From the IMG/VR virus record IMGVR_UViG_3300045988_069092: a stretch of 48,416 nucleotides of DNA, one strand, 5' to 3'. The notes under the pieces were generated by a model. That model searched no databases. It worked only from the letters and a program-made list of their open reading frames with translations, and was not told where the DNA came from. Shown one piece after another: positions 6,747-48,416 of the stretch. The position numbers were made by a program, and so were the translations under genes. Position 1 is the first letter of the stretch. The number at the start of each line of letters is the position of its first letter. Source of the DNA: a virus.

Positions 6747-7318
6747 TTGTCCGAATCAGAGTCGGAGTTGTTAGAGTCGATAAGATAACGCTCTCTGATA
6801 GAGTCAGGGTCATAGTCGTTGTCCTTGTTGCTGTCGGGGAGTACGGGAGTCACATCCACCTTCTTGACATCCTGATAGCCATAGTTGTTGACTCCGAGGA
6901 ACACACCCGCCATGGGGTTGATTTTGCCGTTGAGCATGTAGTCCTCCCACAGACATTCCAAAAGTTGGTACGCTTTTTTTACCAAGTCCGTAACGCCTTG
7001 CGGCAACGAGGACAGCCCACCCATGGCTCCACTGCCTTGTGTGTTACCTGTCTTGATTTCCCACAGTCTTCTCCTGTCAATCCCCAACGCCATAGCCATA
7101 CCAGACACGGAGGGCTTCATATCGCTATCCACCATGAGGTTGAAATACTCATTGAGCCTGTTCTGTACCGCAACCTCATCATGCAAATCAATCTTGGGCA
7201 TGTTCATGAAGTGCAGGTTCATGCTGGTGTACTTGGCATTATCCCCAGCGTCAAGTGTGAGGGAGCTGGTACTCGTAGGCAATCCAATGCCCTTCGGGTT
7301 GTTTCTCTTTGTTGCCAT
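6740..7318 (-). CDS. terS: Terminase small subunit (putative)
   Basis: HTH-like segment SVSGMAMALGIDRRRLWEI. Also the GVFLGVNNYGYQD motif typical of small terminases, and an acidic SDSDSDND tail. GAGGAGG lies upstream. Confidence 0.65.
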   Translation of the reverse strand: MATKRNNPKGIGLPTSTSSLTLDAGDNAKYTSMNLHFMNMPKIDLHDEVAVQNRLNEYFNLMVDSDMKPSVSGMAMALGIDRRRLWEIKTGNTQGSGAMGGLSSLPQGVTDLVKKAYQLLECLWEDYMLNGKINPMAGVFLGVNNYGYQDVKKVDVTPVLPDSNKDNDYDPDSIRERYLIDSNNSDSDSDND

Positions 7319-7727: not shown

Positions 7728-8921
7728 TCACTCGCTTGCCTTGTAGTTGTACAGAGGTTTAATGACCATGAGAATGTCCACCGTCTCGGCGATATTCGCC
7801 ACGATTTCTGCCATGGGCTTGTAGACCATCGGGCTTTCATCAATCGTGGACTGACTGACCGAGGTGGTGAAGATACCCTTCATGGAGTCCTCAAAGTCGG
7901 CGAGACTCACCAGCTCCTTCGCCTTGCTACGGCTCATGATACGACCTGCGCCGTGCGGGGCAGAGCAGTTCCAATCCGGGTTGCCTTTACCTTTGCCGAT
8001 AATACAGCCGTCTCGCATGTTGATGGGAATGAGCAGGAGTTCACCGGCCTTGGCAGAGATAGCTCCCTTGCGAACCATGTTCGTCTCCAAGTCGATGTAG
8101 TTGTGAATGGTCTCGAAACCACCCCAAGGGTTCCAGCCCATCACATCGAGAATGGTCTCGGCAATAGCGAAGCGGTTGAGGACGGCGTACCGCTGGCAGA
8201 TTCTCATGTCGTGTAGATAGTCTTCACGAGTCTTGCCGGTGAGGTAGCACAGCTCCTTCGGAATACCGAGAGGGTTCGGGCTGAACTTGCGGTGAAGCTC
8301 CTTGATAGCTTTCTCGATTTCCTTCTTTCGTCCCTGCGCCGTGTACTCGGCAATCAACTGCTCCTGCCGCTTGTACAGCAGGTCTTTGCCCGACATGGTC
8401 TCCACGGCGAGAGCCTGATAGTACTCTGCCACCTGCTTGCCGAGGTTGCGGCTTCCCGTGTGGATAATGAGGAACTTGTTGCCGTACTCGTCCATGTCGA
8501 TTTCGATGAAGTGATTGCCGCCGCCAAGAGTGCCAATGCTTCTCTTAATGCGGTCGATGTCTTTCAGGTGACGGTAGCACCGAAGCTCGTCCAGCATATC
8601 GAAACGAACATACTCGCTCTTGCGCACCTCTCTGCCAGAGGGGATGTGCTCACGAATGGCAGAGTCAAGGGCGGTGAAGTCGATGTCGATTTGTCCGAGT
8701 TCCACGGTGCGCATACCGCACCCGATGTCTACACCCACGATGTTCGGAATCACCTTGTCACCCAAGTCGGCGGTGAAGCCGATTACACACCCGGCTCCTG
8801 CGTGGACATCGGGCATGATACGAACCTTGCAGTCAGCGAAGACGGGTTGCTTCACGAGGGTGTAAATCTGGTTCAGGGCTTCGGGTTCGATATTGTCAGT
8901 GAAGATTTTAAGGTCACTCAT
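7728..8921 (-). CDS. rtcB: RtcB-family RNA 3'-phosphate ligase
   Basis: Motifs MPDVHAGAGC, GGGNHFIEI, HTGSRNLG and APHGAGR. Start refined to MSDLKIF, with GAGGTGG upstream. Confidence 0.9.
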   Translation of the reverse strand: MSDLKIFTDNIEPEALNQIYTLVKQPVFADCKVRIMPDVHAGAGCVIGFTADLGDKVIPNIVGVDIGCGMRTVELGQIDIDFTALDSAIREHIPSGREVRKSEYVRFDMLDELRCYRHLKDIDRIKRSIGTLGGGNHFIEIDMDEYGNKFLIIHTGSRNLGKQVAEYYQALAVETMSGKDLLYKRQEQLIAEYTAQGRKKEIEKAIKELHRKFSPNPLGIPKELCYLTGKTREDYLHDMRICQRYAVLNRFAIAETILDVMGWNPWGGFETIHNYIDLETNMVRKGAISAKAGELLLIPINMRDGCIIGKGKGNPDWNCSAPHGAGRIMSRSKAKELVSLADFEDSMKGIFTTSVSQSTIDESPMVYKPMAEIVANIAETVDILMVIKPLYNYKASE

Positions 8922-8925
8922 TTTG

Positions 8926-9294
8926 TTACACCACCTCATGCAAAATCTGTTCCAGTCGCTCGGCGCACTTCACGATGAAATCATCGTCCTGCGAGAAAAG
9001 TTTGCCGTCCCTCTGCAATCTTTCGAGAGCCATGAGAGAGGAGCTGATTTTCTCTGCGCACTTGGCAACATGGGTTCTATGGTTCGTCTCTGCCGTGATG
9101 GGGTAAAAGACGGCGTTCCTGCCAAGCTCTGCCCCGTTGGTCATGACGAACTTGGTACGAGCTGGGGTGATACGCTCGATAGTCAGGGGGATAGTCTTCG
9201 GGTAGCGGAAGAACCCCCACCCGATTTGAGTTTTCATTCTGACTCCCACGACATCACCCGGCTTCAAGGTGCTTTTGTCGATTACATCATACAT
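8926..9294 (-). CDS. Hypothetical protein
   Basis: Start refined to MYDVIDK, preceded by GAGGAGGAAAGCGAAA. Confidence 0.55.
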   Translation of the reverse strand: MYDVIDKSTLKPGDVVGVRMKTQIGWGFFRYPKTIPLTIERITPARTKFVMTNGAELGRNAVFYPITAETNHRTHVAKCAEKISSSLMALERLQRDGKLFSQDDDFIVKCAERLEQILHEVV

Positions 9295-11142: not shown

Positions 11143-11542
11143 CGTCCAGCACCCCATATACCAATACGAGAAGGTCTTCGAGGTAGCTTATGATTGCATA
11201 GCTTCCATGCGCATGGCCTTTGTCGTAGGCGTATTCCCAAAGTTTTCTTGCTCCATCACGAGTCAGCCCGTGTCCGACCTCGCTTTGAATAGCACGGTAG
11301 ATGTCCTCATGGATAGCGTCTCTCGCCTTGTTCTTGGCGGTGTTGAGACGAGCAACCTCCGCTTGGTATGCGGCGTTGTTTTCAGCCACCTTGTCACGGT
11401 TCCACTTCACGGACTGGTTTTCATCGAAGACATGGTTCTGAGCCACCTTGCGAATGACAGCGGGAACGCACGACATTCCCTGCATACGCTCGTAGTCACT
11501 CTGAATCTCGTCCCAGCCCTTAACCGTCATTTTATTCGCCAT
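11129..11542 (-). CDS. Hypothetical protein
   Basis: Start refined to MANKMTV, which overlaps the thyX stop region. Confidence 0.55.
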   Translation of the reverse strand: MANKMTVKGWDEIQSDYERMQGMSCVPAVIRKVAQNHVFDENQSVKWNRDKVAENNAAYQAEVARLNTAKNKARDAIHEDIYRAIQSEVGHGLTRDGARKLWEYAYDKGHAHGSYAIISYLEDLLVLVYGVLDDVKR

Positions 11543-12155
11543 CGTCAACACCTCCGCACTTCTCATGGCAGACGATACGACCGCTCTTGCACTTGGGGAC
11601 GAGCATGAAGTGAAGCGCAGGGTCTACAAGGGACACCATCTGCTTCATCAGCTCTCGGATTTCCCACTGCGCTCTCAGGCACAGCCGTTCGTTGCTCATG
11701 TGAATCAGCTCCCGCAGATTGCAGGAGAGGAACAGGGCGGTCTCACAGGCGTTGGGGAGGACATACCGAGCGTCCTCATTGGGAACTCCAACCTTTTGGG
11801 ACAGCTCGTAAAACTCTGCGATATGATTCAGCACCAAGCCGTAATCCCATTTACCGCCCAGCTCCTCAATAGAGCGTGGCAGTACCGCCGAGAAACCATC
11901 CTCCGAGCAGTATCGCTGAGACCGCTGAGTGAAGCTACAGTGCCTATGCCGCACGAGCTGGTGAGAACAGGAACGGGAGATACCCTCGATTTTGAAGGTG
12001 AAGTAGATATGCTCGAACACGCTATGGTGTCCGTTGCGGTACAGGTGCTTCACCAGCCCAAGCGGGTTCTTGGGGTCGCTGTCATAGCAGATACTTGCGA
12101 TTGCCGCAATGGTATTGATAGGGTCAGGCGTTGCCTGAATGAGTGTGACCAACAT
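11532..12155 (-). CDS. thyX: Flavin-dependent thymidylate synthase
   Basis: ThyX signature RHRHCSFTQRSQRY. Confidence 0.9.
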   Translation of the reverse strand: MLVTLIQATPDPINTIAAIASICYDSDPKNPLGLVKHLYRNGHHSVFEHIYFTFKIEGISRSCSHQLVRHRHCSFTQRSQRYCSEDGFSAVLPRSIEELGGKWDYGLVLNHIAEFYELSQKVGVPNEDARYVLPNACETALFLSCNLRELIHMSNERLCLRAQWEIRELMKQMVSLVDPALHFMLVPKCKSGRIVCHEKCGGVDDGE

Positions 12156-23523: not shown

Positions 23524-25098
23524 ACGAAAGCGGTAATCTATGCCAGATATTCGAGCCATAGCCAAAGGGAAGAATCCATAGAGGGACAGCTTCGGGAGTG
23601 TCACGACTTTGCGCTGAAAAACGGAATGACCATCATCGGTGAGTACTGCGATAAGGCAATCTCAGGAAAGACCGACAATCGACCGAGCTTCCAACGGCTC
23701 ATAAAGGACAGCGAGAAGGGGCAGTTTGAAGCGGTGATAATGTATACCCTTGACCGTTTCGCTCGAAATAGGTACGACTCTGCCATCTACAAAGCAAAAC
23801 TGAAAAAGAACGGTGTGCGGGTCTACTATGCCAAACAGCCAATGCCCGACACGCCAGAGGGCATTATCCTTGAGTCCGTGTTGGAGGGGTATGCCGAGTA
23901 CTACTCGGAGAACCTGTCACGCAACATCAAACGGGGCATGAAGGAAAACGCATTGCAGTGCATTGCCAACGGTGGAGCCGGTATGCCCTTGGGGTACACG
24001 GTAGGCGAAGACAGAAGGTACAAGATAGACCCCGTTGGAGCAAGAATCGTTCAAGAGATTTTCCAGATGTACGCTGACGGTATGTCGGCTACGCAAATCA
24101 TCAACGAGTGCAACAAGCGTGGCTATAAGACCGCACGAGGAAATGCGTTCAACAAAAATAGCCTACGCACCATGTTGAAGAACGACAGGTACATAGGCGT
24201 ATATCGGTTTGCGGATGTCGTGGTGGAGGGTGGTGTCCCGCCCATCATAAGCCGGGAGCTGTTTGACAAGGTTCAAGCTACCCTCAAGCACAACTATTCA
24301 GCCCGTGCAAGGAACAAGGCCAAGGACGATTACCTTCTCACCGCCAAGCTGTTTTGCGGTCACTGCGGCTCCTCCATGGTGGGAGAGAGCGGCACTTCAA
24401 AGTCTGGAAAGCTCCATCACTACTACAAGTGCATAGAGCGCAAGCGCAAGCACAAGTGTAATAAGGCCGTGGAGAAGAAAGACTGGATGGAGGAGTTGGT
24501 GGTTCGCTTCACTGTCCAAAAAGTGCTGACCGATGAAAACATAGAGCGCATTGCGGTCAAGGCCATGGAGATTATCGAGAAGGAGTCTGCTGACACCACC
24601 TACATTGATGGTCTACGAAACGAGCTGAAAGAGGTTAAGAAGAAAATCAAGAACCTCATGACTGCCATCGAGCAGGGCATTATCACCCCGTCCACCAAGG
24701 AGAGGATGGACGAGCTGGAACTTGAGAAGAACGAGATAGAGGGAAGAATCGCCAGCGAGGAAATGAAAAAGCCACTCCTGACGAAAGAGCGCATAATGTA
24801 CTGGCTCTACTCGTTCAAGAGTGGCAATATAGATGATGTCGAGTACAAGCGTAGGGTGATAGACACGCTGGTGAACTCGGTGTATGTCTATGATGAAGGG
24901 GACAAAGGGAGAAGAATTGTCTTCACCTTCAACATATCAGGGCAAAACACCGCTACGCTCTCGTGTTCGGATATAGCGTGTTTCGCTCCACCAAAAATAA
25001 ACCACCCGCAAGGGTGGATTTATTTTTGCCGTGGGCCTGCGGGAGTCGAAGTTTATCCCCCCTTGCGGGGGAAATCCCTTCAGGTCCACCAAAAATAA
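23524..25098 (+). CDS. Large serine recombinase (integrase)
   Basis: KAVIYARYSSHSQREESIEGQ catalytic region lies upstream of the first ATG of the ORF track. It also has a recombinase domain and a zinc ribbon (CGHCGSSM...YYKC). No ATG/GTG/TTG occurs at the expected start; an ACG sits 7 nt after GGAGG. Confidence 0.85.
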   Translation, partial: TKAVIYARYSSHSQREESIEGQLRECHDFALKNGMTIIGEYCDKAISGKTDNRPSFQRLIKDSEKGQFEAVIMYTLDRFARNRYDSAIYKAKLKKNGVRVYYAKQPMPDTPEGIILESVLEGYAEYYSENLSRNIKRGMKENALQCIANGGAGMPLGYTVGEDRRYKIDPVGARIVQEIFQMYADGMSATQIINECNKRGYKTARGNAFNKNSLRTMLKNDRYIGVYRFADVVVEGGVPPIISRELFDKVQATLKHNYSARARNKAKDDYLLTAKLFCGHCGSSMVGESGTSKSGKLHHYYKCIERKRKHKCNKAVEKKDWMEELVVRFTVQKVLTDENIERIAVKAMEIIEKESADTTYIDGLRNELKEVKKKIKNLMTAIEQGIITPSTKERMDELELEKNEIEGRIASEEMKKPLLTKERIMYWLYSFKSGNIDDVEYKRRVIDTLVNSVYVYDEGDKGRRIVFTFNISGQNTATLSCSDIACFAPPKINHPQGWIYFCRGPAGVEVYPPLRGKSLQVHQK

Positions 25099-25320: not shown

Positions 25321-27345
25321 CTATTCAGTAGTCTTTCCATAAGGACCTATGAATCTGAATCCGTTTCTATGAATCATGTGGTCTGGATTAGTGACAATCC
25401 AAACCTCAGTCTCCCATGCAAGATCTTCCTTGCAGCTGCGAAATGCGTCGTTGCTCTCAAACGCAGTAATGTAAATGCATTTATCTGCACATTCTCCCAT
25501 CATCTGTTCAAGTTCATATTTTCGCTCTGCCGTAATTGGATTTGAAGTATGATAGGCTTCAATCAAGTAAATCCAATCTTTTTCCGCTGAATACGCAACA
25601 ATGTCAGGAAGCTTGCCTTGTGACAAATCTTTGATTCCAAGCTCTGCAAGCTTTTCTTTTTCATTTATGACACCATATTTGTTGTCTGAGTCTCCACAAT
25701 AAAGCAACGTCGCTCCATAACCGAAACGGGGCAGGAACTCAGTAATAACTTGTTGCTGTATCAAGTTATGTTCCCCATCTTTTAATTGGAACTCTTTTCC
25801 ATCCGGCATTTTTACATTAATCATAGGGATATTTCTTGTCTGTGCCAGCCTTTCCCGATATATTTTGTGGGTCTTGTTAAAAATTTCAACCTGTTTCTCC
25901 CAATCTTTCTGCCCGAATTTGCTGATAATCCGAGCGTACTCTGTGCTAATTCTGTACCCACGAGTTGCATCGCTTAGATTAGACTCTGGCTTTGACCGTT
26001 CTACGATTCCACCAATCAACAACTTACTAAAACCATCTCGGAGAACATAGTCATAGGAACCCTTGCTCATATTTTCCTCAAGATATGTATTGTAAAACTC
26101 TACGCATTGCTTTGTAGTAATACTATAACCAGAGTTTGTCGATTTGACTTTTCTCCACTCTTTTGAGGTCTTAACATCGCCTGCGGCTAGCAATGCCATG
26201 GCTAACTTCTCTTTATCTCGCCCAGTTAAGCCTTCCAAAGGAATCCCAAGCTGATCAATAATAAAAAGTGCCTCTCTTATCAAAGTCTGGACAGCAAGAT
26301 CTTTTTCTTGAAAAGATTTTTTTCCTTTTTGCTTTCTTGTTATAAGCTCGGGCAAATTATATCGGTCCATCCCTTTTTGGTGTCTCCCTTCTAAATAATC
26401 AACGACTGCCAGCGCCATTTTATATGCAAATATAGGAGGAACAGCATTTCCGATTTGTGTGTATTGACTTTCTTCAGAACCACAAAATTCAAACCAATCC
26501 GGAAATCCTTGTAGCCGTGCAGCTTCTCGCACTGTAATCCTTCGACGCCGCCCGTCCGACAACTTGATCCTGTGCATATCGCTAGTTGCGCCAGCAAGAT
26601 TACGACAAGTCAAAGTGCGCGCAGGGCGATCCATGTGCAAATCTCTTGGAGTCCTACATTTGGATGCTGCCTCATATTTTGCGATATACTCGTCCATCGC
26701 AGGAGTCAAAAAAATAGCATTATCAGGTATATCTGTAGCTAATGCGCCCAATGCTTCTCCAGCGCTTATAACATAGTCATTCGGCTTCGGAAACTTAAAC
26801 CCGCCGTGATGCCCGACAATAACCATTCTTTCTCTACTTTGAGGAACATCGAATTTTACAAGTTGAAAAGTTCTATGTTCGACTATGTACCCCAATTTCT
26901 TGCATTGGTCAATTATCGACTGAAAATACGAAGTACTTTGTTCAGGTAGCCCCTTAACATTTTCACACATCCATAAATCGGGTTGAACTTTTTTTACCGC
27001 TTCGATAAAAGCCGGAAAGCCATTTCTATCATCAATTTGTCCTTTCCGCTTCCCTCGCCTGCTAAAGGGTTGACAGGGAGGCCCCCCTATAAGAACACTC
27101 GCTCTAGGAAATTCAGTATCTTTTGTAATTATCTCTTGATGACACTCAGAACGAAGATTCTTTCTGTAGGTGTCACAACAATCTTCAACCATTTCATATC
27201 CTACGGTTTTTATCCCCGCAGCTTCAAATCCTAAAGACAGTCCGCCACAGCCTGCAAACAAATCTATGGCGCAATATTTGGAAGTTGGGGGGATTTTTAT
27301 GGTATTATTTAAATACTCAATAAAATTATCATATCTCTTGGGCAT
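25321..27345 (-). CDS. Fusion protein: C5 cytosine DNA methyltransferase (N-terminal) plus a BsuBI/PstI-like restriction endonuclease domain (C-terminal)
   Basis: MTase motifs DLFAGCGG, GGPPCQPFS, ENV and QIGNAVPP. The C-terminal LPDIVAYSAEKDWIYLIEA...AWETEVWIV..PDHMIHRNGFRFIGPY matches my recollection of the BsuBI_PstI REase family. Start refined to MPKRYDN after GGGGAGGG. Confidence 0.8.
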   Translation of the reverse strand: MPKRYDNFIEYLNNTIKIPPTSKYCAIDLFAGCGGLSLGFEAAGIKTVGYEMVEDCCDTYRKNLRSECHQEIITKDTEFPRASVLIGGPPCQPFSRRGKRKGQIDDRNGFPAFIEAVKKVQPDLWMCENVKGLPEQSTSYFQSIIDQCKKLGYIVEHRTFQLVKFDVPQSRERMVIVGHHGGFKFPKPNDYVISAGEALGALATDIPDNAIFLTPAMDEYIAKYEAASKCRTPRDLHMDRPARTLTCRNLAGATSDMHRIKLSDGRRRRITVREAARLQGFPDWFEFCGSEESQYTQIGNAVPPIFAYKMALAVVDYLEGRHQKGMDRYNLPELITRKQKGKKSFQEKDLAVQTLIREALFIIDQLGIPLEGLTGRDKEKLAMALLAAGDVKTSKEWRKVKSTNSGYSITTKQCVEFYNTYLEENMSKGSYDYVLRDGFSKLLIGGIVERSKPESNLSDATRGYRISTEYARIISKFGQKDWEKQVEIFNKTHKIYRERLAQTRNIPMINVKMPDGKEFQLKDGEHNLIQQQVITEFLPRFGYGATLLYCGDSDNKYGVINEKEKLAELGIKDLSQGKLPDIVAYSAEKDWIYLIEAYHTSNPITAERKYELEQMMGECADKCIYITAFESNDAFRSCKEDLAWETEVWIVTNPDHMIHRNGFRFIGPYGKTTE

Positions 27346-27438
27346 ATGTCCCTCCCCTTTCTCTTTTATAAAAATAGCCAACAATAGAAATTTACTCTTT
27401 TTGCATTATGCATACGATTAACTAATCGACTATTTTTA

Positions 27439-30156: not shown

Positions 30157-30588
30157 TTACTTAGTAGGGGTGTATTCCTCCCACCCCTGCGGGTAGGCTT
30201 CGGGAGACCACACATTGCCGTCAATCAACGACCTGTAGAGCTTGTCCTTGTACTGGACAATGTCCCCGGTGTTGTATGCGTCATGTGTGCCGATGGGCTG
30301 AGTCCAGATGGGGTAGCCCTCCTCGTTGAGACCGAGGGGTGTGTACAGGGCAGGAACAGCGTCAGGTCTCCAATCGTCCTGAGAGGTGTGAGCCTGTGCC
30401 ACACGATAGAGCTGGGGGTCTCCCACGCTGTTCACGCCGTAGGTGAAACGGTCGTTCACCTTGTAGTTCACACCGACCTTCCAAGGACGATACAGCGCAA
30501 CGCAAATCAGGGCGGTGTCCTCGTCCAGACTCGCACCTGCGTAGTCCATAGCGTCACGGATTGCTTTTGCCTGTTCAATCATGCTCAT
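30157..30588 (-). CDS. Carbohydrate-binding (ChtBD3 / CBM5-12-like) protein
   Basis: YNTGDIVQYKDKLYRSLIDGNVWSPEAYPQGW motif, and an earlier similar repeat. Confidence 0.6.
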   Translation of the reverse strand: MSMIEQAKAIRDAMDYAGASLDEDTALICVALYRPWKVGVNYKVNDRFTYGVNSVGDPQLYRVAQAHTSQDDWRPDAVPALYTPLGLNEEGYPIWTQPIGTHDAYNTGDIVQYKDKLYRSLIDGNVWSPEAYPQGWEEYTPTK

Positions 30589-30902
30589 ACGCTCACCCCC
30601 ACAATTTCCAGAGCTTCCTTCATGTCCTGCACAATGCTTGCACCCTCGTTGATTTCAAGCGTCCTGCCGGTGATAAGCCAGTTGCTCATGTTTCCTTCGA
30701 TTTCCTCTCGCAGACCTTCTTTGCCAGCCAGATGGAAAGTGTACTCGTCATACTCGAACATGGTGACTTCACGCTCGGTCATTTCATCGACCATGGTGAT
30801 GTCCTTGATGTTCTCCCTCAGACGCACTTCCACATACCCCGGCATGGGTGCGAACGGCTCAATGGTGAGCGAGTTGGGAGAGACATTTCCTCTTACTCTC
30901 AT
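30585..30902 (-). CDS. Hypothetical acidic protein overlapping the RT 3' end by 44 nt
   Basis: GGAGG lies 9 nt upstream of the ATG. It is not Avd-like: it is acidic and shows no obvious four-helix-bundle pattern. Confidence 0.55.
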   Translation of the reverse strand: MRVRGNVSPNSLTIEPFAPMPGYVEVRLRENIKDITMVDEMTEREVTMFEYDEYTFHLAGKEGLREEIEGNMSNWLITGRTLEINEGASIVQDMKEALEIVGVSV

Positions 30903-31962
30903 TGCTGATAACCTCCTTCAACTTCTTGATGTTGACTGTCTCGCAGTACTTCTTCCTCATTGCGTAGGAATTGGTATGCTTGAAACAGGCGCACCGGGAG
31001 ATAAACCCGGAAGCGATTCTGTATGCGATAGGTCGGTTTTCTCTCTGTAGTTTCTGGATAAACCTGCTTTGCCGCATGAGAGCCAATGCTCTCCGCTTGC
31101 GAATGGTGGTGAAGCCCACGCCAAAACATCGTCCCACGAAGTCTATCTTTCGCCCTCTGCGGCCTGACCTATCTTTGCAGTACTGCTGAATACGAAAGAG
31201 CTGATAGTCATGCTTGATGGACAGGCCAAGCTCACCCACGAACTCGAAGATGTCATGGAGAGCTTTTCTCAGCTTTCGTTTATTGCTGTCAATCAGTACC
31301 AAATCGTCAGCATATCGGACATAGTGTCGGATTCTGTGCTTCTGCTTGATAAGATTGTCCAGCGGTTGCAGGTACAGCTCTGCCAGCCAAGGCGAGGTGT
31401 AGTTTCCGATGGGAAGCCCTTGTTCGTGGGAGTCAATCACCTTGAAGATGATTTGCAGGAACTTTTCGTCTTTGATTTTCTCCCGCAGACGGGCTTTCAG
31501 TTTGCCGTGAGGAATGGACGGGTAGAACTTGCTTATGTCCATCTTCACGCAGTACTTGGCGTGTTTTCTGTCCCTGACAGTAGCCCTCTCCACACCCTTG
31601 GAAGCATGGTCGATACCACGCTTCGGGATGTTGGCACAGCTCCAATGATAGGAAGACCGTTCAATGATAGGCTTGAGGACTTGCATAATGGCGTGGTGTG
31701 CGCATTGGTCAGGGTAGAACGCCGGGATTTGTAGTTCTCGTTCTTTTCCAGACAGACCGTCCTTGATGAAACGAGTCTTGTATGGCGAGAGAAAGTCCAT
31801 GCGACTCAAGCGTTCGGACAGGTCTTTTGCGTAGTCCTCCAAGTTGTCGCAGACATCTTTCACCATCTTCCGCTTCCTCTTGTTCTGAGAAGCGTTAAGG
31901 ATAGCCAGCCGACAGTTATCGACCGACACCACCTTTTCATAGAGAAAGCCAAACCTTTTCAT
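30859..31962 (-). CDS. DGR-type reverse transcriptase
   Basis: RT motifs including YVRYADDLVL (YxDD) and LPIGNYTSPWLAELYL, which is the DGR-type IGxxxS(Q) region. The gene lies directly downstream of the TR. Confidence 0.9.
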   Translation of the reverse strand: MKRFGFLYEKVVSVDNCRLAILNASQNKRKRKMVKDVCDNLEDYAKDLSERLSRMDFLSPYKTRFIKDGLSGKERELQIPAFYPDQCAHHAIMQVLKPIIERSSYHWSCANIPKRGIDHASKGVERATVRDRKHAKYCVKMDISKFYPSIPHGKLKARLREKIKDEKFLQIIFKVIDSHEQGLPIGNYTSPWLAELYLQPLDNLIKQKHRIRHYVRYADDLVLIDSNKRKLRKALHDIFEFVGELGLSIKHDYQLFRIQQYCKDRSGRRGRKIDFVGRCFGVGFTTIRKRRALALMRQSRFIQKLQRENRPIAYRIASGFISRCACFKHTNSYAMRKKYCETVNIKKLKEVISNESKRKCLSQLAHH

Positions 31963-32077
31963 GTGCTTTTGTTTCTTATAGGGCTTTCGAGAGTGAACCT
32001 ACTAACCCTATCCCTCCAAACTATTTTTTACCAATGGGTACGGCGAGACAGTATTTTGATGGATAGACCGTTTAACA

Positions 32078-32197
32078 AAAGTAGGCGAGAGCCAATGTTC
32101 GTGTTGGAATTGGACGAAGTGTTGTTCAAATTAGCCGTAAACAGACCGCAAATCGAGCCATTATTCCAATTGCCGCCGTGTTGGAACACTCGCTATT
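32078..32197 (-). repeat. DGR template repeat (TR)
   Basis: 120-bp colinear match to 32294-32413. The only differences are at TR adenines on the minus strand. Confidence 0.9.
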
Positions 32198-32251
32198 ACT
32201 GTTCGCCTTAGTGTGTTGCTGTAGCGTTACATAGGCGTTTTCACCTGCTTA

Positions 32252-32274
32252 TGTGGGGGAGGGAATCCCCCACA
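32252..32274 (-). promoter_or_regulatory. GC-rich hairpin just downstream of the VR and stop codon (candidate DGR target-recognition hairpin)
   Basis: TGTGGGGGA / TCCCCCACA form a 9-bp stem with a 5-nt loop. On the minus strand it begins 6 nt after the stop codon. Confidence 0.6.
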
Positions 32275-32279
32275 CCCCC

Positions 32280-34217
32280 TCAGGAGGGAATATAAAGCAG
32301 GCGAGAGCCAATGCTCGAGTGGGAATAGGACGAAGTGCCGTCCAAATAAGCCGTAAACAGACCGCAAACCGAGCCAAAAGACCAAACGCCGCCGTGCTGG
32401 AACACCCGCCAACCAGTGCTACTCCAACAGCCGTCACACATATAGGTGGACTCACTGCCGCTACCAGCCGCCGCAGGAAGCATGACATGAGGGTTGTTGC
32501 CAGAGTCAAGACCTTCCTCGGTGATGTAAGAACTGCTCCAATTCGTAGCACCCGTGTAGGAGAGTTTGGCGTAATTGCTTGCGGTATCGTCTGCATACTT
32601 GGACGGGTCGTTGCAGACATAGTAAGAGCCGTTGTTCCAGTTCACACCGTCAACCCATTCCCACACATTGCCCCACAGACCCTCGATACCTCTCCACACG
32701 ACATCGACCTTGCCGTCCGTGCCAGAAGGTCTGCCAGTGAGATTCGGAATACTGTTGCAGGAGCCGGTTTTCAGAGAACCGCTGTTGCCGTCACAGTAAC
32801 CTCTACCGATTTTGCTCTGCACATTGTTGTCGGCGAACTCAACCAGCATGAGCATTTGCACAGCGGAGAGTGCCGCAATGTCAATCAGGCTCCAACCTGC
32901 GCCCTTGCTCTTGGCATTGGAGCGGAACTGCGCTCTCGTCTGAGACACCTGAGGGCTTGCGCCGCTGACGGACTTGTTGTTGGAGGAGGTCTTGTATGCG
33001 CCGATGTAGGCGTGGTCACACTCCTTGCCAGCATGATTGAACAGCGGGTGAACGGAGAAACCAGCAGTGGGCTTGTCGGCGATTTTGATATACTCCACAT
33101 TCCCGGAGCGGTAACGGCGATACCAGAACTTGGGGATTTTCACCATCACATCACCCGTGGAGAGGGTTTCACGCACAATGCCCTTCCAAGGCATGGCATT
33201 GTCGAAATCGCTATGACCTGCGCTTGCACCCACGGAAGCAGTGGCAGTCATGCCGACAGCGTTGTCGGTTCTCGCCCAAGCGGGGGACGAAGTACTCTTG
33301 TCTCTGCTGATACCGTAGATTTTCACGAAGGACAGCTCCACTTCCTCACTCTGCCCGTCAGAGGTGATTACGACCTGCTCAGAAGCGGTCTCGCTTCCGC
33401 TCACTGCTTTCACCGTCCAAGTGCCGACCTCGTGGACTTGGAACTGATAAGTACCCGTGCTGGTCGTGGCAGTGTAGACCGTTTCGTTCAGGGAGCAGGT
33501 CAGCGTTGCGCCAGCGGGATAGGTGACATCAATGGTGGCGGTGAAATAGTAGTAGGTGGCTTCGTAGTTCGATACCGCACCTGCCACAGACACTTTGGAA
33601 GTAGTGTTATCAGGCTTGGAGTACCCGTCAGCCGCCCCGTACTCGATGTGATAGGTGTGACCGATAGCGACCGTGAAGGAAGTGGTCTTCTGCGTCTTGG
33701 TGAGGGTGGCAGTTTTGGTATACTGCCCGTCCGTCTCGTCCACGCAGGTGATGGTGACGCTGGTAAATGCGCTATCATCGTCAATCTCGATGGTGACATT
33801 CGCCGTCTCGCCATCGGCGGGGGGAGCCGCAGAAGCCCGGTTGCTCTCATTGGTGGAGAGATTGAACACGCCCTGCGTGGAGTACGGGAAAGCGGCGAAG
33901 TAGTAGGTCTTGCCCTCGGTCAGACCGTCCACCACATACTCCTCGGTGGCGTACTCACCAAGCTCCTTGTTGTCGATAACCAGCGTACCCTCGCTGGTGT
34001 TCGTGGGGTACTGCTCCTCGCTCATGCGAATCATTACGCCGCCAACGGAGCAGAGCAGGTTTCCTGCGCTGTCATAGCTGTCGGCGGGTTCCAGAAATCT
34101 CAGTCCGATACTGTTTTTGGATTTTGCGAAAGCGGTGAACTCTCGCATGTTGTTGGGGGCTTGCCCAACTTTCTGCAAAATCTGGTCTACAGTCCATTTT
34201 GCTTCTGCCCAACTCAT
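32280..34217 (-). CDS. Tail fibre / receptor-binding protein with a C-terminal C-type-lectin/FGE-like DGR variable domain
   Basis: GLWGNVWEWVDG motif upstream of the VR. Position is in the distal tail module. Confidence 0.85.
   Translation of the reverse strand: MSWAEAKWTVDQILQKVGQAPNNMREFTAFAKSKNSIGLRFLEPADSYDSAGNLLCSVGGVMIRMSEEQYPTNTSEGTLVIDNKELGEYATEEYVVDGLTEGKTYYFAAFPYSTQGVFNLSTNESNRASAAPPADGETANVTIEIDDDSAFTSVTITCVDETDGQYTKTATLTKTQKTTSFTVAIGHTYHIEYGAADGYSKPDNTTSKVSVAGAVSNYEATYYYFTATIDVTYPAGATLTCSLNETVYTATTSTGTYQFQVHEVGTWTVKAVSGSETASEQVVITSDGQSEEVELSFVKIYGISRDKSTSSPAWARTDNAVGMTATASVGASAGHSDFDNAMPWKGIVRETLSTGDVMVKIPKFWYRRYRSGNVEYIKIADKPTAGFSVHPLFNHAGKECDHAYIGAYKTSSNNKSVSGASPQVSQTRAQFRSNAKSKGAGWSLIDIAALSAVQMLMLVEFADNNVQSKIGRGYCDGNSGSLKTGSCNSIPNLTGRPSGTDGKVDVVWRGIEGLWGNVWEWVDGVNWNNGSYYVCNDPSKYADDTASNYAKLSYTGATNWSSSYITEEGLDSGNNPHVMLPAAAGSGSESTYMCDGCWSSTGWRVFQHGGVWSFGSVCGLFTAYLDGTSSYSHSSIGSRLLYIPS
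32294..32413 (-). repeat. DGR variable repeat (VR), the last 40 codons or so of the fibre gene
   Basis: See the TR entry. It encodes ...GWRVFQHGGVWSFGSVCGLFTAYLDGTSSYSHSSIGSRLL. Confidence 0.9.
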
Positions 34218-46803: not shown

Positions 46804-48267
46804 TTATTCGTCTTCGTCAGAACCGTTCGGATTTCCCGAACCATCGGTGTTGTTCTGAGCCGTCTTCTGCTGTTGCGCCAGCTTCTCTTGCTGTTCCTCG
46901 TAATACTTCATACTCAGGGTGTATGCTCTCTCCGGGTCAACGAACAAGCCGCTATGCTGGAACGCCAGAAGGGGGTGAATCTTCGGCTGTTGGAGCATGG
47001 ACACCAGAACTTGCGATTTGCTCTGGATGTTCTCGTAGTTGCGTCTGGTGAACTGCAACTCGATGTCTTTCAACCGCAGGTTGATGTTCTCGGACAGGTC
47101 ACGGCAGATACGAAGAACCAGCTTGAGCATTTTCTTCTCTGCCTTTTTGAACATGTGTTCACTGTCCTTGGCTCTCGCTTCCGCAAGAGACCAGCCGTCT
47201 CGCAGGAGTACCGCCGCCCCCGTGTCAGAGGTAGAAGTACCGCCGTTGCGGTTCGGCATACCACAGATAGTGAGAACAGCGTTGTACAAATCGTCCTTGA
47301 GCGTCTGAGTCTGAACCTGATTCAGCTCCTTCACCACGAGGTCAACATCAATGTTCCCGCCGCTGTCGTTGGGCGGCACAAGGATTGCGCCCTCCTCAAG
47401 AAACTCTTTGAACTTCTCCTTCTCAATGCGACAGCCGATGAACTTCCAGAACGCCTGAATGAACTGCTCCACGCCGTCCATGCGGTTGGACTCCGCATTG
47501 TTGATTGCGTCCAGCAGGGGAAGAACAATCTCGAAAGAGCCGAGCCGAGCATTGTTCGCCGGGTACTCGAAAATGGGAATCATGTCCAGCGCATGGGACT
47601 TGGACTCGGCCTTGTTGATGATGTCTCCGTCAATCAACCAGTAGTAGTTCTCGGTGTAGACCGAGTAGTGCGTGACCTCGTTCTCGTCCTTGCTGTACTT
47701 CACTGCCATCAGGGGCTTATTCCCGATTTCATTGGAGTACACAACGAAGGTGTCACGGGGGTCAAGGGTGTACATTTCAAACGGGGACTCGTCTTCCTCG
47801 TTGGGTTCATCGGGCAGAACCAGACGATAAGCGGTTCCGCAAATCATCTGCCACTCCACAATCTCTTGGTCTTGCGTGGCCTTATCCTCAGCGAACATCA
47901 GCTCGTTCAGGGCGGTAATGCCCTTGGTGACGCTCTCCTCGGTGCTTCTACCGATGTACTGAATCGGCTCACCGCACAGGTAGCCGACCTTGAAGGAGAC
48001 AATCTCGTTTGCCCGGTTCTCCACAATCTTGTTGCAGATTTCAGGACGGACATCCTTTTTCCGATTCAAAATCGGCTGTTTGCCCTTGTAGTAGTTCCAC
48101 AGGTAATCAATCTCGCTTCGGTTGAAAGCGTGGTCGCTGAGAGCTTTCTGCAAGACCTCGACCACATTCCCGTCCGTGATTTCCTTCACGCTGGATTTGA
48201 TAACCCGTCTGCCACTCATTTGCCGAGTCTCGCTCATGGGCTTGGAAGTGTCGATTTCGTTTCCCAA
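46804..48267 (-). CDS. Portal protein (SPP1 gp6-like)
   Basis: YLWNYYKGKQPILNR and the overall pattern. The start is probably TTG (48267) after GGAGGGA, or ATG at 48237. The ORF-track N-terminus is the hairpin repeat. Confidence 0.85.
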   Translation of the reverse strand: MGNEIDTSKPMSETRQMSGRRVIKSSVKEITDGNVVEVLQKALSDHAFNRSEIDYLWNYYKGKQPILNRKKDVRPEICNKIVENRANEIVSFKVGYLCGEPIQYIGRSTEESVTKGITALNELMFAEDKATQDQEIVEWQMICGTAYRLVLPDEPNEEDESPFEMYTLDPRDTFVVYSNEIGNKPLMAVKYSKDENEVTHYSVYTENYYWLIDGDIINKAESKSHALDMIPIFEYPANNARLGSFEIVLPLLDAINNAESNRMDGVEQFIQAFWKFIGCRIEKEKFKEFLEEGAILVPPNDSGGNIDVDLVVKELNQVQTQTLKDDLYNAVLTICGMPNRNGGTSTSDTGAAVLLRDGWSLAEARAKDSEHMFKKAEKKMLKLVLRICRDLSENINLRLKDIELQFTRRNYENIQSKSQVLVSMLQQPKIHPLLAFQHSGLFVDPERAYTLSMKYYEEQQEKLAQQQKTAQNNTDGSGNPNGSDEDE

Positions 48268-48294
48268 GACTGTCCCTCCTCTCCTCAGAAATTG

Positions 48295-48343
48295 AAAATG
48301 GCGCATGACTGTTTGAGCTTTTCGCTCTCGCAATCATGCGCCA
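48295..48343 (-). promoter_or_regulatory. 49-nt structured leader/terminator-like hairpin, copy 2, upstream of portal
   Basis: Identical to 2277-2325. It lies about 20-65 nt downstream of the predicted transcription start of the promoter at 48370-48398. Confidence 0.7.
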
Positions 48344-48369
48344 CATCTATGCCATAATTATTCGTGTAT

Positions 48370-48398
48370 ATTATAGCATTTCGGTTCGTAAAAGTCAA
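48370..48398 (-). promoter_or_regulatory. Near-consensus sigma-A-type promoter of the structural operon. It spans the circularisation junction and is also present at 9-37.
   Basis: Minus strand reads TTGACT (48393-48398), a 17-nt spacer, then TATAAT (48370-48375). Confidence 0.7.
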
Positions 48399-48416
48399 GT
48401 TCTAATTCTTGTTTTA

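Follow-up and report, generated by a model that had tools for sequence, protein, structure and literature searches.

Comparison with described diversity-generating retroelements

In Bordetella phage BPP-1, the diversity-generating retroelement (DGR) has the order mtd-avd-TR-brt, and sequence passes adenine-specifically from a template repeat (TR) into a variable repeat (VR) that forms the last ~40 codons of a tail protein with a C-type-lectin (CLec) fold. Avd is a basic four-helix-bundle protein of ~120-130 residues encoded in the cassette. A different organization was described by Wu et al. (2018): 29% of their 372 DGRs combine a TR and a reverse transcriptase (RT) gene with no accessory gene (Architecture A), and an avd-less lineage exists (PMC5758913). 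We analysed the IMG/VR virus record IMGVR_UViG_3300045988_069092, a stretch of 48,416 nucleotides that we call the window, and found on its minus strand a DGR cassette in the order target-TR-RT (Table 1). We put at about 90% the probability that this is an active, Avd-less DGR carried by a temperate siphovirus-like phage of gut Clostridia. The core of a preliminary description of the same DNA is retained, namely an adenine-specific flow from TR to VR, a VR at the C-terminus of the last protein of the tail module and an RT next to the TR. That description also called the element complete, which holds for the TR, the VR, the RT and the target, but not for Avd or any other recognizable accessory gene, none of which is encoded in the 48 kb.

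The features shared with BPP-1 are, besides the adenine-specific transfer into the end of a CLec-fold tail protein, a template rich in AAY codons (Y, pyrimidine), a GC-rich 3' end that resembles the initiation of mutagenic homing (IMH) element and carries a fixed difference between TR and VR, a GC-rich hairpin after the VR, and a predicted RNA duplex that brackets the TR and is followed by a stem-loop and a run of A. Unlike BPP-1, the window has no avd, a VR-TR gap of 96 nt, and an RT motif that reads IGNYTSP instead of ending in SQ; moreover, its hairpin loop is of the 4-5 nt kind with G..AA on the antisense strand. The RNA of the spacer between TR and RT belongs to Rfam class RT-18, as opposed to RT-10 in BPP-1 (PMC5737381). 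BPP-1 has an Avd-binding element directly after the TR, whereas no such stem-loop is evident in the window, judging by conservation.

With Architecture A the locus shares the target-TR-RT order without an accessory gene, the C-terminal VR and a CLec-type fold that sequence models do not see (PMC5758913). This match to the avd-less group of Wu et al. refers to the architecture and not to the RT tree with its 'Lineage 3'. CH1 occurs in their sub-lineage 3a, which comes from Bacteroides, in contrast to the Clostridia hosts of this locus (PMC5758913). TaqVP of Thermus aquaticus (PDB 5vf4), the best structural match of the target, also has a CLec fold and a C-terminal VR, but it is only 16-18% identical, is a cellular and not a phage tail protein, and is devoid of N-terminal immunoglobulin (Ig)/FN3 domains. 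Finally, the DGRs of Faecalibacterium prophages (PMC11792537) and of the gut virome (PMC8144416) have in common with this one that temperate phages of gut Clostridia carry them, that tail proteins are the targets and that VR polymorphism is taken as activity.

Table 1. Position of the DGR components and adjacent features in the window
Feature	Position	Strand	Basis or remarks
DGR target gene (645 aa), closing the tail module	32280-34217	-	Open reading frame (ORF); phrog_5302; AlphaFold2 (AF2); Foldseek
C-terminal variable-protein domain, residues 335-645, predicted CLec/FGE-like fold	32280-33215	-	AF2, predicted template modelling score (pTM) 0.85; Foldseek against PDB
VR by homology to the TR, 120 nt, codons 602-641	32294-32413	-	Computed ungapped alignment
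VR part actually diversified, coding positions 16-102	32312-32398	-	Population comparison and codon table
Putative IMH-like 3' end of the VR, TTGGCTCTCGCCTGCTTT, GC-rich block and fixed G116	32294-32311	-	Never diversified; conserved in L010-L015
Target-site hairpin/cruciform, 9-bp GC-rich stem TGTGGGGGA/TCCCCCACA, 5-nt loop	32252-32274	.	DNA fold and stem search
Upstream strand of the predicted long-range RNA duplex, GGCGAACAGUA	32197-32207	-	Minimum free energy (MFE) fold; abuts the TR 5' end; conserved
TR, non-coding	32078-32197	-	Core template 32096-32182; IMH*-like end 32078-32095, A at position 116
Downstream strand of that duplex, UACUGUCUCGCC	32042-32053	-	Spacer positions 25-36
Structured spacer RNA, Rfam RT-18 (RF03021)	31963-32040	-	Immediately 5' of the RT start; 3' two-thirds of the spacer
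DGR reverse transcriptase, 367 aa, net charge +40	30859-31962	-	RVT_1 7.5e-19; phrog_1423 3.5e-91
Acidic ORF105, 105 aa, net charge -10	30585-30902	-	Overlaps the RT 3' end by 44 nt
CBM5/12 protein, 143 aa, two carbohydrate-binding repeats	30157-30588	-	Between the DGR and the holin/lysin genes

Adenine-specific differences between the TR and the VR

A repeat search of the window returned a two-copy direct repeat (32078-32193 and 32294-32409), with no further copy beyond the TR and the VR. Aligned without gaps at an offset of 216, the two are colinear over 120 bp with 21 mismatches, each of which is a T in the TR on the plus strand, exactly as had been read by hand; none falls on a non-adenine template position. 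Since the cassette genes lie on the minus strand, these are adenines of the coding strand. In all, 21 of the 31 TR adenines differ (11 A>G, 8 A>T, 2 A>C), and the probability that 21 random mismatches over 120 positions would all land on adenines is P~3e-16. Read in the frame of the VR, the TR contains a TAG stop; the VR itself is in frame within the 645-aa target ORF and does occupy its last ~40 codons, where the AAT codons previously said to have become GTT, TCT and TTT are codons 611, 613 and 614. One could imagine an ordinary tandem duplication, or a chance resemblance, next to an unrelated RT of a group II intron or retron, as the best NCBIfam matches of the RT are group II intron and Drt models. 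These matches are all far below the cut-offs, Rfam found no intron or retron RNA but only RT-18, and the adenine-only pattern, already improbable by chance in the window, recurs in all relatives, so that this explanation carries negligible weight.

The population of the phage provides the evidence for activity. A search pattern with N at each template adenine recovered 22 contigs of this phage species, 9 of them viral and 13 from metagenomes; with the window's own copies included, 18 VR and 17 TR sequences were compared. The VR copies are distinct in 17 of 18 cases. They vary at 26 of the 31 template adenines and at 4 of the 89 other positions, the 4 being all singletons, and within positions 9-112 they depart from the TR 277 times, 273 of them at adenines. 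Twelve of the 17 TR copies are identical to one another, and ~350 nt of flank are identical among the viral contigs. As the VRs vary at template adenines while the TR is near-constant and the flanks are identical, we consider the element to be active in nature. The preliminary description had named VR polymorphism on adenine-templated positions beside an invariant TR as the pattern to look for; it is borne out, with a near-invariant TR, across the 22 related contigs, and the reverse situation of an invariant VR and a polymorphic TR is not seen. Pooled over 15 TR/VR pairs, the substitutions are 146 A>G, 59 A>T, 49 A>C and 3 at non-A positions, a spectrum filtered by selection. The same diversity is visible in the target protein, whose 90%-identity clusters hold 1301 and 5566 distinct sequences, as compared with 105 members in the largest cluster of the adjacent ORF105. 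Among sampled cluster members, variation is almost entirely restricted to residues 607-636, where a single site can hold up to 10 different residues, and all members listed are full length (644-645 aa).

The comparison also delimits the diversified region. The mismatches at coding positions 1, 2, 4, 8 and 116 do not vary among the VRs of the population; they are fixed boundary differences, not diversified sites. The 120-bp repeat that had been proposed therefore stands as the length of homology, but its diversified span is only 87 nt with 26 template adenines, and 5 of the 21 mismatches are fixed. This span covers 16 codons (residues 607-636), of which 9 are AAY, so that no stop can arise; ~4.5e15 DNA variants and ~7.9e14 protein variants are possible, and a stop codon is unreachable.

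The template shows some variation of its own. When the TR (32078-32197) was compared with those of L002-L008 and L027-L037, 9 sites were polymorphic among the 17 copies (coding positions 8, 16, 19, 27, 28, 33, 34, 37 and 45), all of them adenines (chance ~5e-6). In L030 (6 changes, 7139-7172 region) and L033 (3 changes, 974-1007 region) the altered TR bases match the VR that the contig itself carries, which points to occasional self-retrohoming or to gene conversion from VR to TR, a process that would 'lock' codons; an assembler chimera is an unlikely source of these changes because of the 7-nt junction. In two other contigs, L007 (3602-3721) and L009 (minus strand, ~1977-2096), the 5' end of the VR is joined to the 3' part of the TR and the 216 bp between them are deleted, and the six A>N changes seen in the L030 TR recur in L009. 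These joins are either an assembly collapse across the repeat or real VR/TR recombination. We had considered both contigs as carrying unmutated VRs and rejected this, as they are VR/TR collapses with the 216-bp deletion.

Beyond the species, full-length RT orthologues of 70-85% identity are found in six loci (L010-L015), all with the synteny orf146-orf242-target-TR-RT-orf105. Their contigs are assigned to Acutalibacter, Oscillospiraceae, Lacrimispora defluvii, Avilachnospira, Lachnospiraceae and one 'Bacteroides' bin, and isolates of Anaerotruncus and Ligaoa encode homologues of the target protein. Among deposited phages, the nearest RTs are ~39% identical and belong to Lactobacillus phage LBR48 and to the Butyrivibrio phages Arawn and Idris. 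The six loci, a further locus (L025) and Arawn have the same compact layout, and their mismatches all lie at TR adenines in 6 of the 8, and all but one do so in L011 and L025. In Arawn, as in the window, the DGR ends the tail module before the lysin, with the order VR-gap-TR-spacer-RT and no avd; 9 of 9 mismatches are at TR adenines, a 7-bp GC hairpin follows the VR, and an RT-4/RT-18-like spacer RNA lies at the same place, below Rfam thresholds. Arawn differs in its RT motif (LGNYTSQ), its target (523 aa, 25-36% identical), its hairpin loop (GCAC) and its genome size (31 kb). As for the 'Bacteroides' bin, L015 (CAYZVH010000038.1) is prophage-like, carries the same cassette and has an RT of 70% identity; its bin is named 'uncultured Bacteroides sp.', whereas all other relatives are Clostridia. 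It is probably a mis-binned contig rather than a case of cross-phylum spread.

The reverse transcriptase and the spacer RNA

The RT begins 115 nt past the TR and has the catalytic YADD and the motif 4 IGNYTSP, as reported in the preliminary description. As a DGR signature, motif 4 conforms in its I-G-xxx-S part, its last residue being P and not Q. The SP ending is kept in the window and in L010-L015, whereas L025 and Arawn have SQ. SP is among the variant endings that total 15 of 155 DGR RTs (PMC3521204); in the BPP-1 enzyme, bRT, the substitution Q187P does not lower adenine misincorporation, and the motif-4 Ile, which is critical according to the same study (PMC7826257), is present in the window RT.

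The spacer RNA scores 46.6 bits with the RT-18 model, against a gathering score of 41.3. It consists of a P1 hairpin (UACC-CAUU-GGUA, 32029-32040), an A6 run, and P2 and P3 stems with the conserved UAGUAG and CGAAAG. We compared its pairing across the window, L010-L015 and L025: P1, P2 and P3 pair in 95.8% of cells, against 30-43% when the partners are slid, and 7 pairs are changed on both sides, a number reached by none of 500 shuffles. In the MFE fold, the strands GGCGAACAGUA and UACUGUCUCGCC form a duplex that brackets the TR, directly followed by the P1 hairpin and the A6 run. RNAduplex recovered this bracketing pairing in 8 loci. In L025, whose duplex is out of register in the MAFFT alignment and was scored by RNAduplex, it is kept with unrelated sequence (UACGAAGUGC/GCACUUCGUA; dG -34.9, 1 of 300 shuffles). 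A TR-bracketing duplex followed by a stem-loop and adenosines is the description given for cPRT-Stop (bioRxiv 10.1101/2023.10.23.563531), which the predicted duplex, stem-loop and A-run appear to match. The 23 nt directly past the TR, where Avd-type DGRs have their Avd-binding stem-loop, are not conserved, which is consistent with the absence of Avd. We also considered priming by the AGUAGG of RT-18 on the CCUACU of the TR (positions 113-118) and discarded it: three relatives have AGUAAG with an unchanged TR, and in L025 the two are unpaired.

The 3' end of the VR and the target-site hairpin

At the 3' end of the VR, the block GGCTCTCGCC together with position 116 is GC-rich, holds a fixed TR/VR difference and is never diversified; at position 116, each of the 17 VR copies that extend to it has G, while the 17 TRs all have A. 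By these sequence features, the VR end is a putative analogue of IMH and the TR end of IMH*.

The 9-bp GC hairpin noted earlier after the stop codon is present. It begins 5 nt past that codon (32280-32282) and 19 nt past the end of the TR/VR homology, with a DNA fold z of -3.5, a value equalled in 1 of 200 shuffles. Seven relatives have a perfect stem; in L014, where the hairpin is out of register in MAFFT and was scored by an explicit stem search instead, a T-A pair has become C-G by compensatory change. Guo et al. (2011) described such hairpins as lying 4-34 bp after the VR with a GC-rich stem of 7-10 bp, and showed that the 4-nt sense-strand GRNA loop of BPP-1 is critical (PMC3240598). Stem length and distance from the VR in the window fall within these bounds, so the likeness to characterized DGR targets that had been claimed is sustained for stem and distance and fails for the loop, which is TTCCC on the sense and GGGAA on the antisense strand. 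Across the loci, it is the antisense strand that carries loop sequences of the series GAAA, GGGAA, GAGAA and GATAA, and the loop is of 5 nt in 5 of 7 closely related loci. The hairpin was also considered as an intrinsic terminator and rejected, as it has no T-run and a promoter/terminator scan was empty on the minus strand, with nothing above shuffle expectation.

The DNA fold of this region (32236-32300, minus strand) further nests the main hairpin with a second small one, CCCT-CCTG-AGGG, that spans the stop codon, and in an outer stem of 6 bp, CTGCTT/AAGCAG, the IMH-like block pairs through its last bases, G116 among them, with the sequence right after the hairpin. Relatives have AAGTGG at the site of this outer stem and would pair there only through G-U wobbles.

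The target protein

The target gene closes the tape-measure/tail block, just before the genes for the CBM5/12 protein, a holin-like protein and an amidase. Neither Pfam, including its FGE-sulfatase model, nor NCBIfam gave a match on the target, and phmmer against PDB returned only botrocetin, a snake C-type lectin, at E = 0.2; in PHROGs, phrog_5302 ('tail protein') matches over residues 353-645. Because sequence models miss the fold, it had to be tested by structure prediction. The full-length AF2 model, built with 55 homologues (predicted local distance difference test score, pLDDT, 81), has an N-terminal helix, Ig/FN3-like beta-sandwich domains (~26-295) and a C-terminal alpha/beta domain of the CLec/FGE fold (~335-645). 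Foldseek searches of PDB with this model gave TaqVP first and then FN3/Ig repeats, and with the C-terminal domain by itself TaqVP at E 7.6e-11 (TM 0.53-0.56), followed by BPP-1 Mtd, formylglycine-generating enzymes (FGE), TvpA, EgtB and snake C-type lectins. The lectin/FGE-like tip that had been deduced from a GNVWEWV motif upstream of the VR thus finds a counterpart in the predicted structure, and the motif itself is at residues 516-522. The models support the view that the C-terminal domain has the C-type-lectin/FGE fold of DGR variable proteins.

Our best reading of the 645-aa protein is a receptor-binding tail tip, in which VR changes would switch the tropism of the phage. The best BFVD matches are gut-virome 'tail collar fiber protein' entries (E 2e-44), and one member of the target's own cluster was deposited as a tail collar fiber protein (DAS29097.1). 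The diversified protein could instead be another virion or surface protein, such as a decoration or adhesion module, with no host-range switching: the silence of Pfam and NCBIfam, the fact that the 'tail collar fiber' names are depositor annotations and the resemblance of the Ig/FN3 domains to adhesins would fit such a protein. The position of the gene at the end of the tail block and immediately before the lysis genes makes this improbable, as do the match to phrog_5302, a tail family, and the N-terminal residues 1-134, which are common to the equivalent gene of Arawn and 36% identical there; moreover, viral DGR targets are mostly tail proteins (PMC8144416).

Absence of Avd and activity of the element

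Several observations weigh against an active, tropism-switching DGR and have to be set beside the evidence for it. No Avd, which is essential in BPP-1, is encoded in the cassette or in the closed 48-kb genome. RT motif 4 ends in SP, as against the signature [I/V/L]GxxxSQ. The VR diversity is a diversity between assemblies and not between reads within one sample. As regards the nucleic acid elements, the bracketing duplex is, in close relatives taken singly, only modestly above shuffles, the priming nucleotide was not found, and the sense loops of the hairpin (TTCCC, TTTC, TTCTC and TTATC) are not 4-nt GRNA loops. Lastly, it is from the position of the gene, the fold and the names given by depositors that the terms 'tail fibre' and 'tropism switching' derive. 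The first three of these points could mean that the DGR has decayed and is no longer active, the TR/VR pattern being a fossil of past retrohoming. A fossil is highly improbable given 17 different VRs in genomes that are identical over ~350 nt of flank. In addition, drift at non-adenine positions is minimal (4 of 277 VR differences), and the RT, the spacer RNA and the hairpin are intact and conserved across relatives of 70-85% identity.

The absence of Avd places the cassette in the accessory-free target-TR-RT type and not in the BPP-1 type. Searches of the cassette neighbours against Pfam, NCBIfam and PHROGs gave no Avd match, and none of the 67 small ORFs of the genome matches Avd or HRDC. 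Avd has a pI of ~9.5 (PMC5758913), whereas the neighbouring ORFs are acidic, with net charges from -7 to -22; five ORFs inside or next to the cassette were checked, and not one of them is basic.

An active DGR might nevertheless require an accessory that we do not recognize: a divergent Avd-like protein, a host protein, or ORF105, translationally coupled as it is to the RT. Sequence conservation among Avd proteins is poor, ORF105 overlaps the end of the RT gene and is conserved alongside it in L010-L015, and Wu et al. described a small acidic accessory gene, CH1, that is found only in avd-less DGRs (PMC5758913). Such a requirement seems rather unlikely, as ORF105 is absent from the avd-less L025 and Arawn and is confined to one phage lineage, where it forms a narrow family of 321 proteins without annotation; it has 105 residues as against 160-169 for CH1, and gave no family match in Pfam, PHROGs or NCBIfam. 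The small-ORF and charge surveys likewise yielded no candidate, and Wu et al. found no distant avd in genomes with avd-less cassettes (PMC5758913). ORF105 may serve the DGR of this lineage as an accessory, or may just be the phage gene that comes next; we do not retain it as an established accessory gene, since its conservation is not separable from phage synteny.

Genome context

The ends of the window share an exact terminal overlap of 55 bp (1-55 and 48362-48416), and the contig is therefore a circularly closed genome of ~48.36 kb. Across the closing junction the terminase gene (622-2319) adjoins the portal gene (46804-48333). With a large serine recombinase and an SPP1-type portal among its genes, this is the closed genome of a temperate siphovirus-like phage, presumably of gut Clostridia. 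A megablast search of the cassette against GenBank phages gave no match, and the lineage has no cultured representative in the collection searched. The 143-aa CBM5/12 protein downstream of the DGR is kept in L010 and L012 only. Elsewhere, a single ORF of 687 aa (25321-27384, minus strand) joins BsuBI/PstI restriction-endonuclease domains to a C-5 cytosine DNA methylase domain in one protein and adjoins the serine recombinase (23626-25098, plus strand). Genes at 7728-8939 and 11532-12155 (both minus strand) and small ORFs encode an RtcB RNA ligase, ThyX, a PemK/MazF-like toxin and a dATP/dGTP diphosphohydrolase-like domain. The latter raised the idea of a modified-adenine genome (Z-type, 2-aminoadenine), which was dropped as no PurZ-like enzyme was found.

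Proposed mechanism

We propose the following scenario for the Avd-less DGR of the window. An RNA spanning the TR and the 115-nt spacer would be made and would fold so that spacer positions 25-36 base-pair with the stretch immediately preceding the TR, with the small hairpin, the A-run and the RT-18 stems after it. The 367-aa RT would copy the TR into cDNA, misincorporating specifically opposite adenines. Synthesis would start inside the GC-rich block, most likely between TR positions 103 and 115, as the diversified adenines end with A102 and transfer of A116 is never seen. The cDNA would then replace the VR, the 3' junction being set by the IMH-like GC block with the help of the hairpin, and the 5' junction by the homology around positions 9-15. 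As a consequence, 16 codons would be randomized (~8e14 proteins) on the CLec-fold tip, which presumably binds the receptor. Priming in cis, the part played by the hairpin and the effect on host range are inferred by analogy with BPP-1.

One could go further and speculate that this is a mechanistically distinct, Avd-independent DGR, in which the highly basic RT and the RT-18-class RNA replace bRT-Avd, the hairpin works with a GNRA-like loop on the opposite strand, and the template itself is occasionally hit by the same adenine-specific process, progressively 'locking' codons. We regard this as a tentative possibility.

Significance

The element does not overturn the current understanding of DGRs. 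It is a known kind of system, and tail-protein DGRs of gut phages are well documented (PMC8144416, PMC11792537). Its interest lies in particular points: the assignment to RT-18, a predicted BPP-1-like duplex around the TR in a system without Avd, the strand-flipped hairpin loop and a TR polymorphism restricted to adenines. Weinberg et al. linked RT-10 alone with a DGR, that of BPP-1, and their suggestion that the remaining RT motifs belong to further DGRs was speculative (PMC5737381); RT-18, whose role was left open at its first description, here gains a concrete function as a DGR spacer RNA. Altogether, the locus offers a clean natural case of the accessory-free architecture, with unusually good population evidence for activity. 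Its list of parts is compact and fully delimited (hairpin, IMH-like block, TR, bracketing duplex, RT-18 RNA and RT in ~1.6 kb), with no ORF in the short gap between VR and TR, and such a minimal Avd-less system would be a useful candidate for reconstitution and for engineered targeted mutagenesis. For the ecology of the gut, it adds a widespread lineage of temperate Clostridia phages with a continuously diversified, presumed receptor-binding tip.

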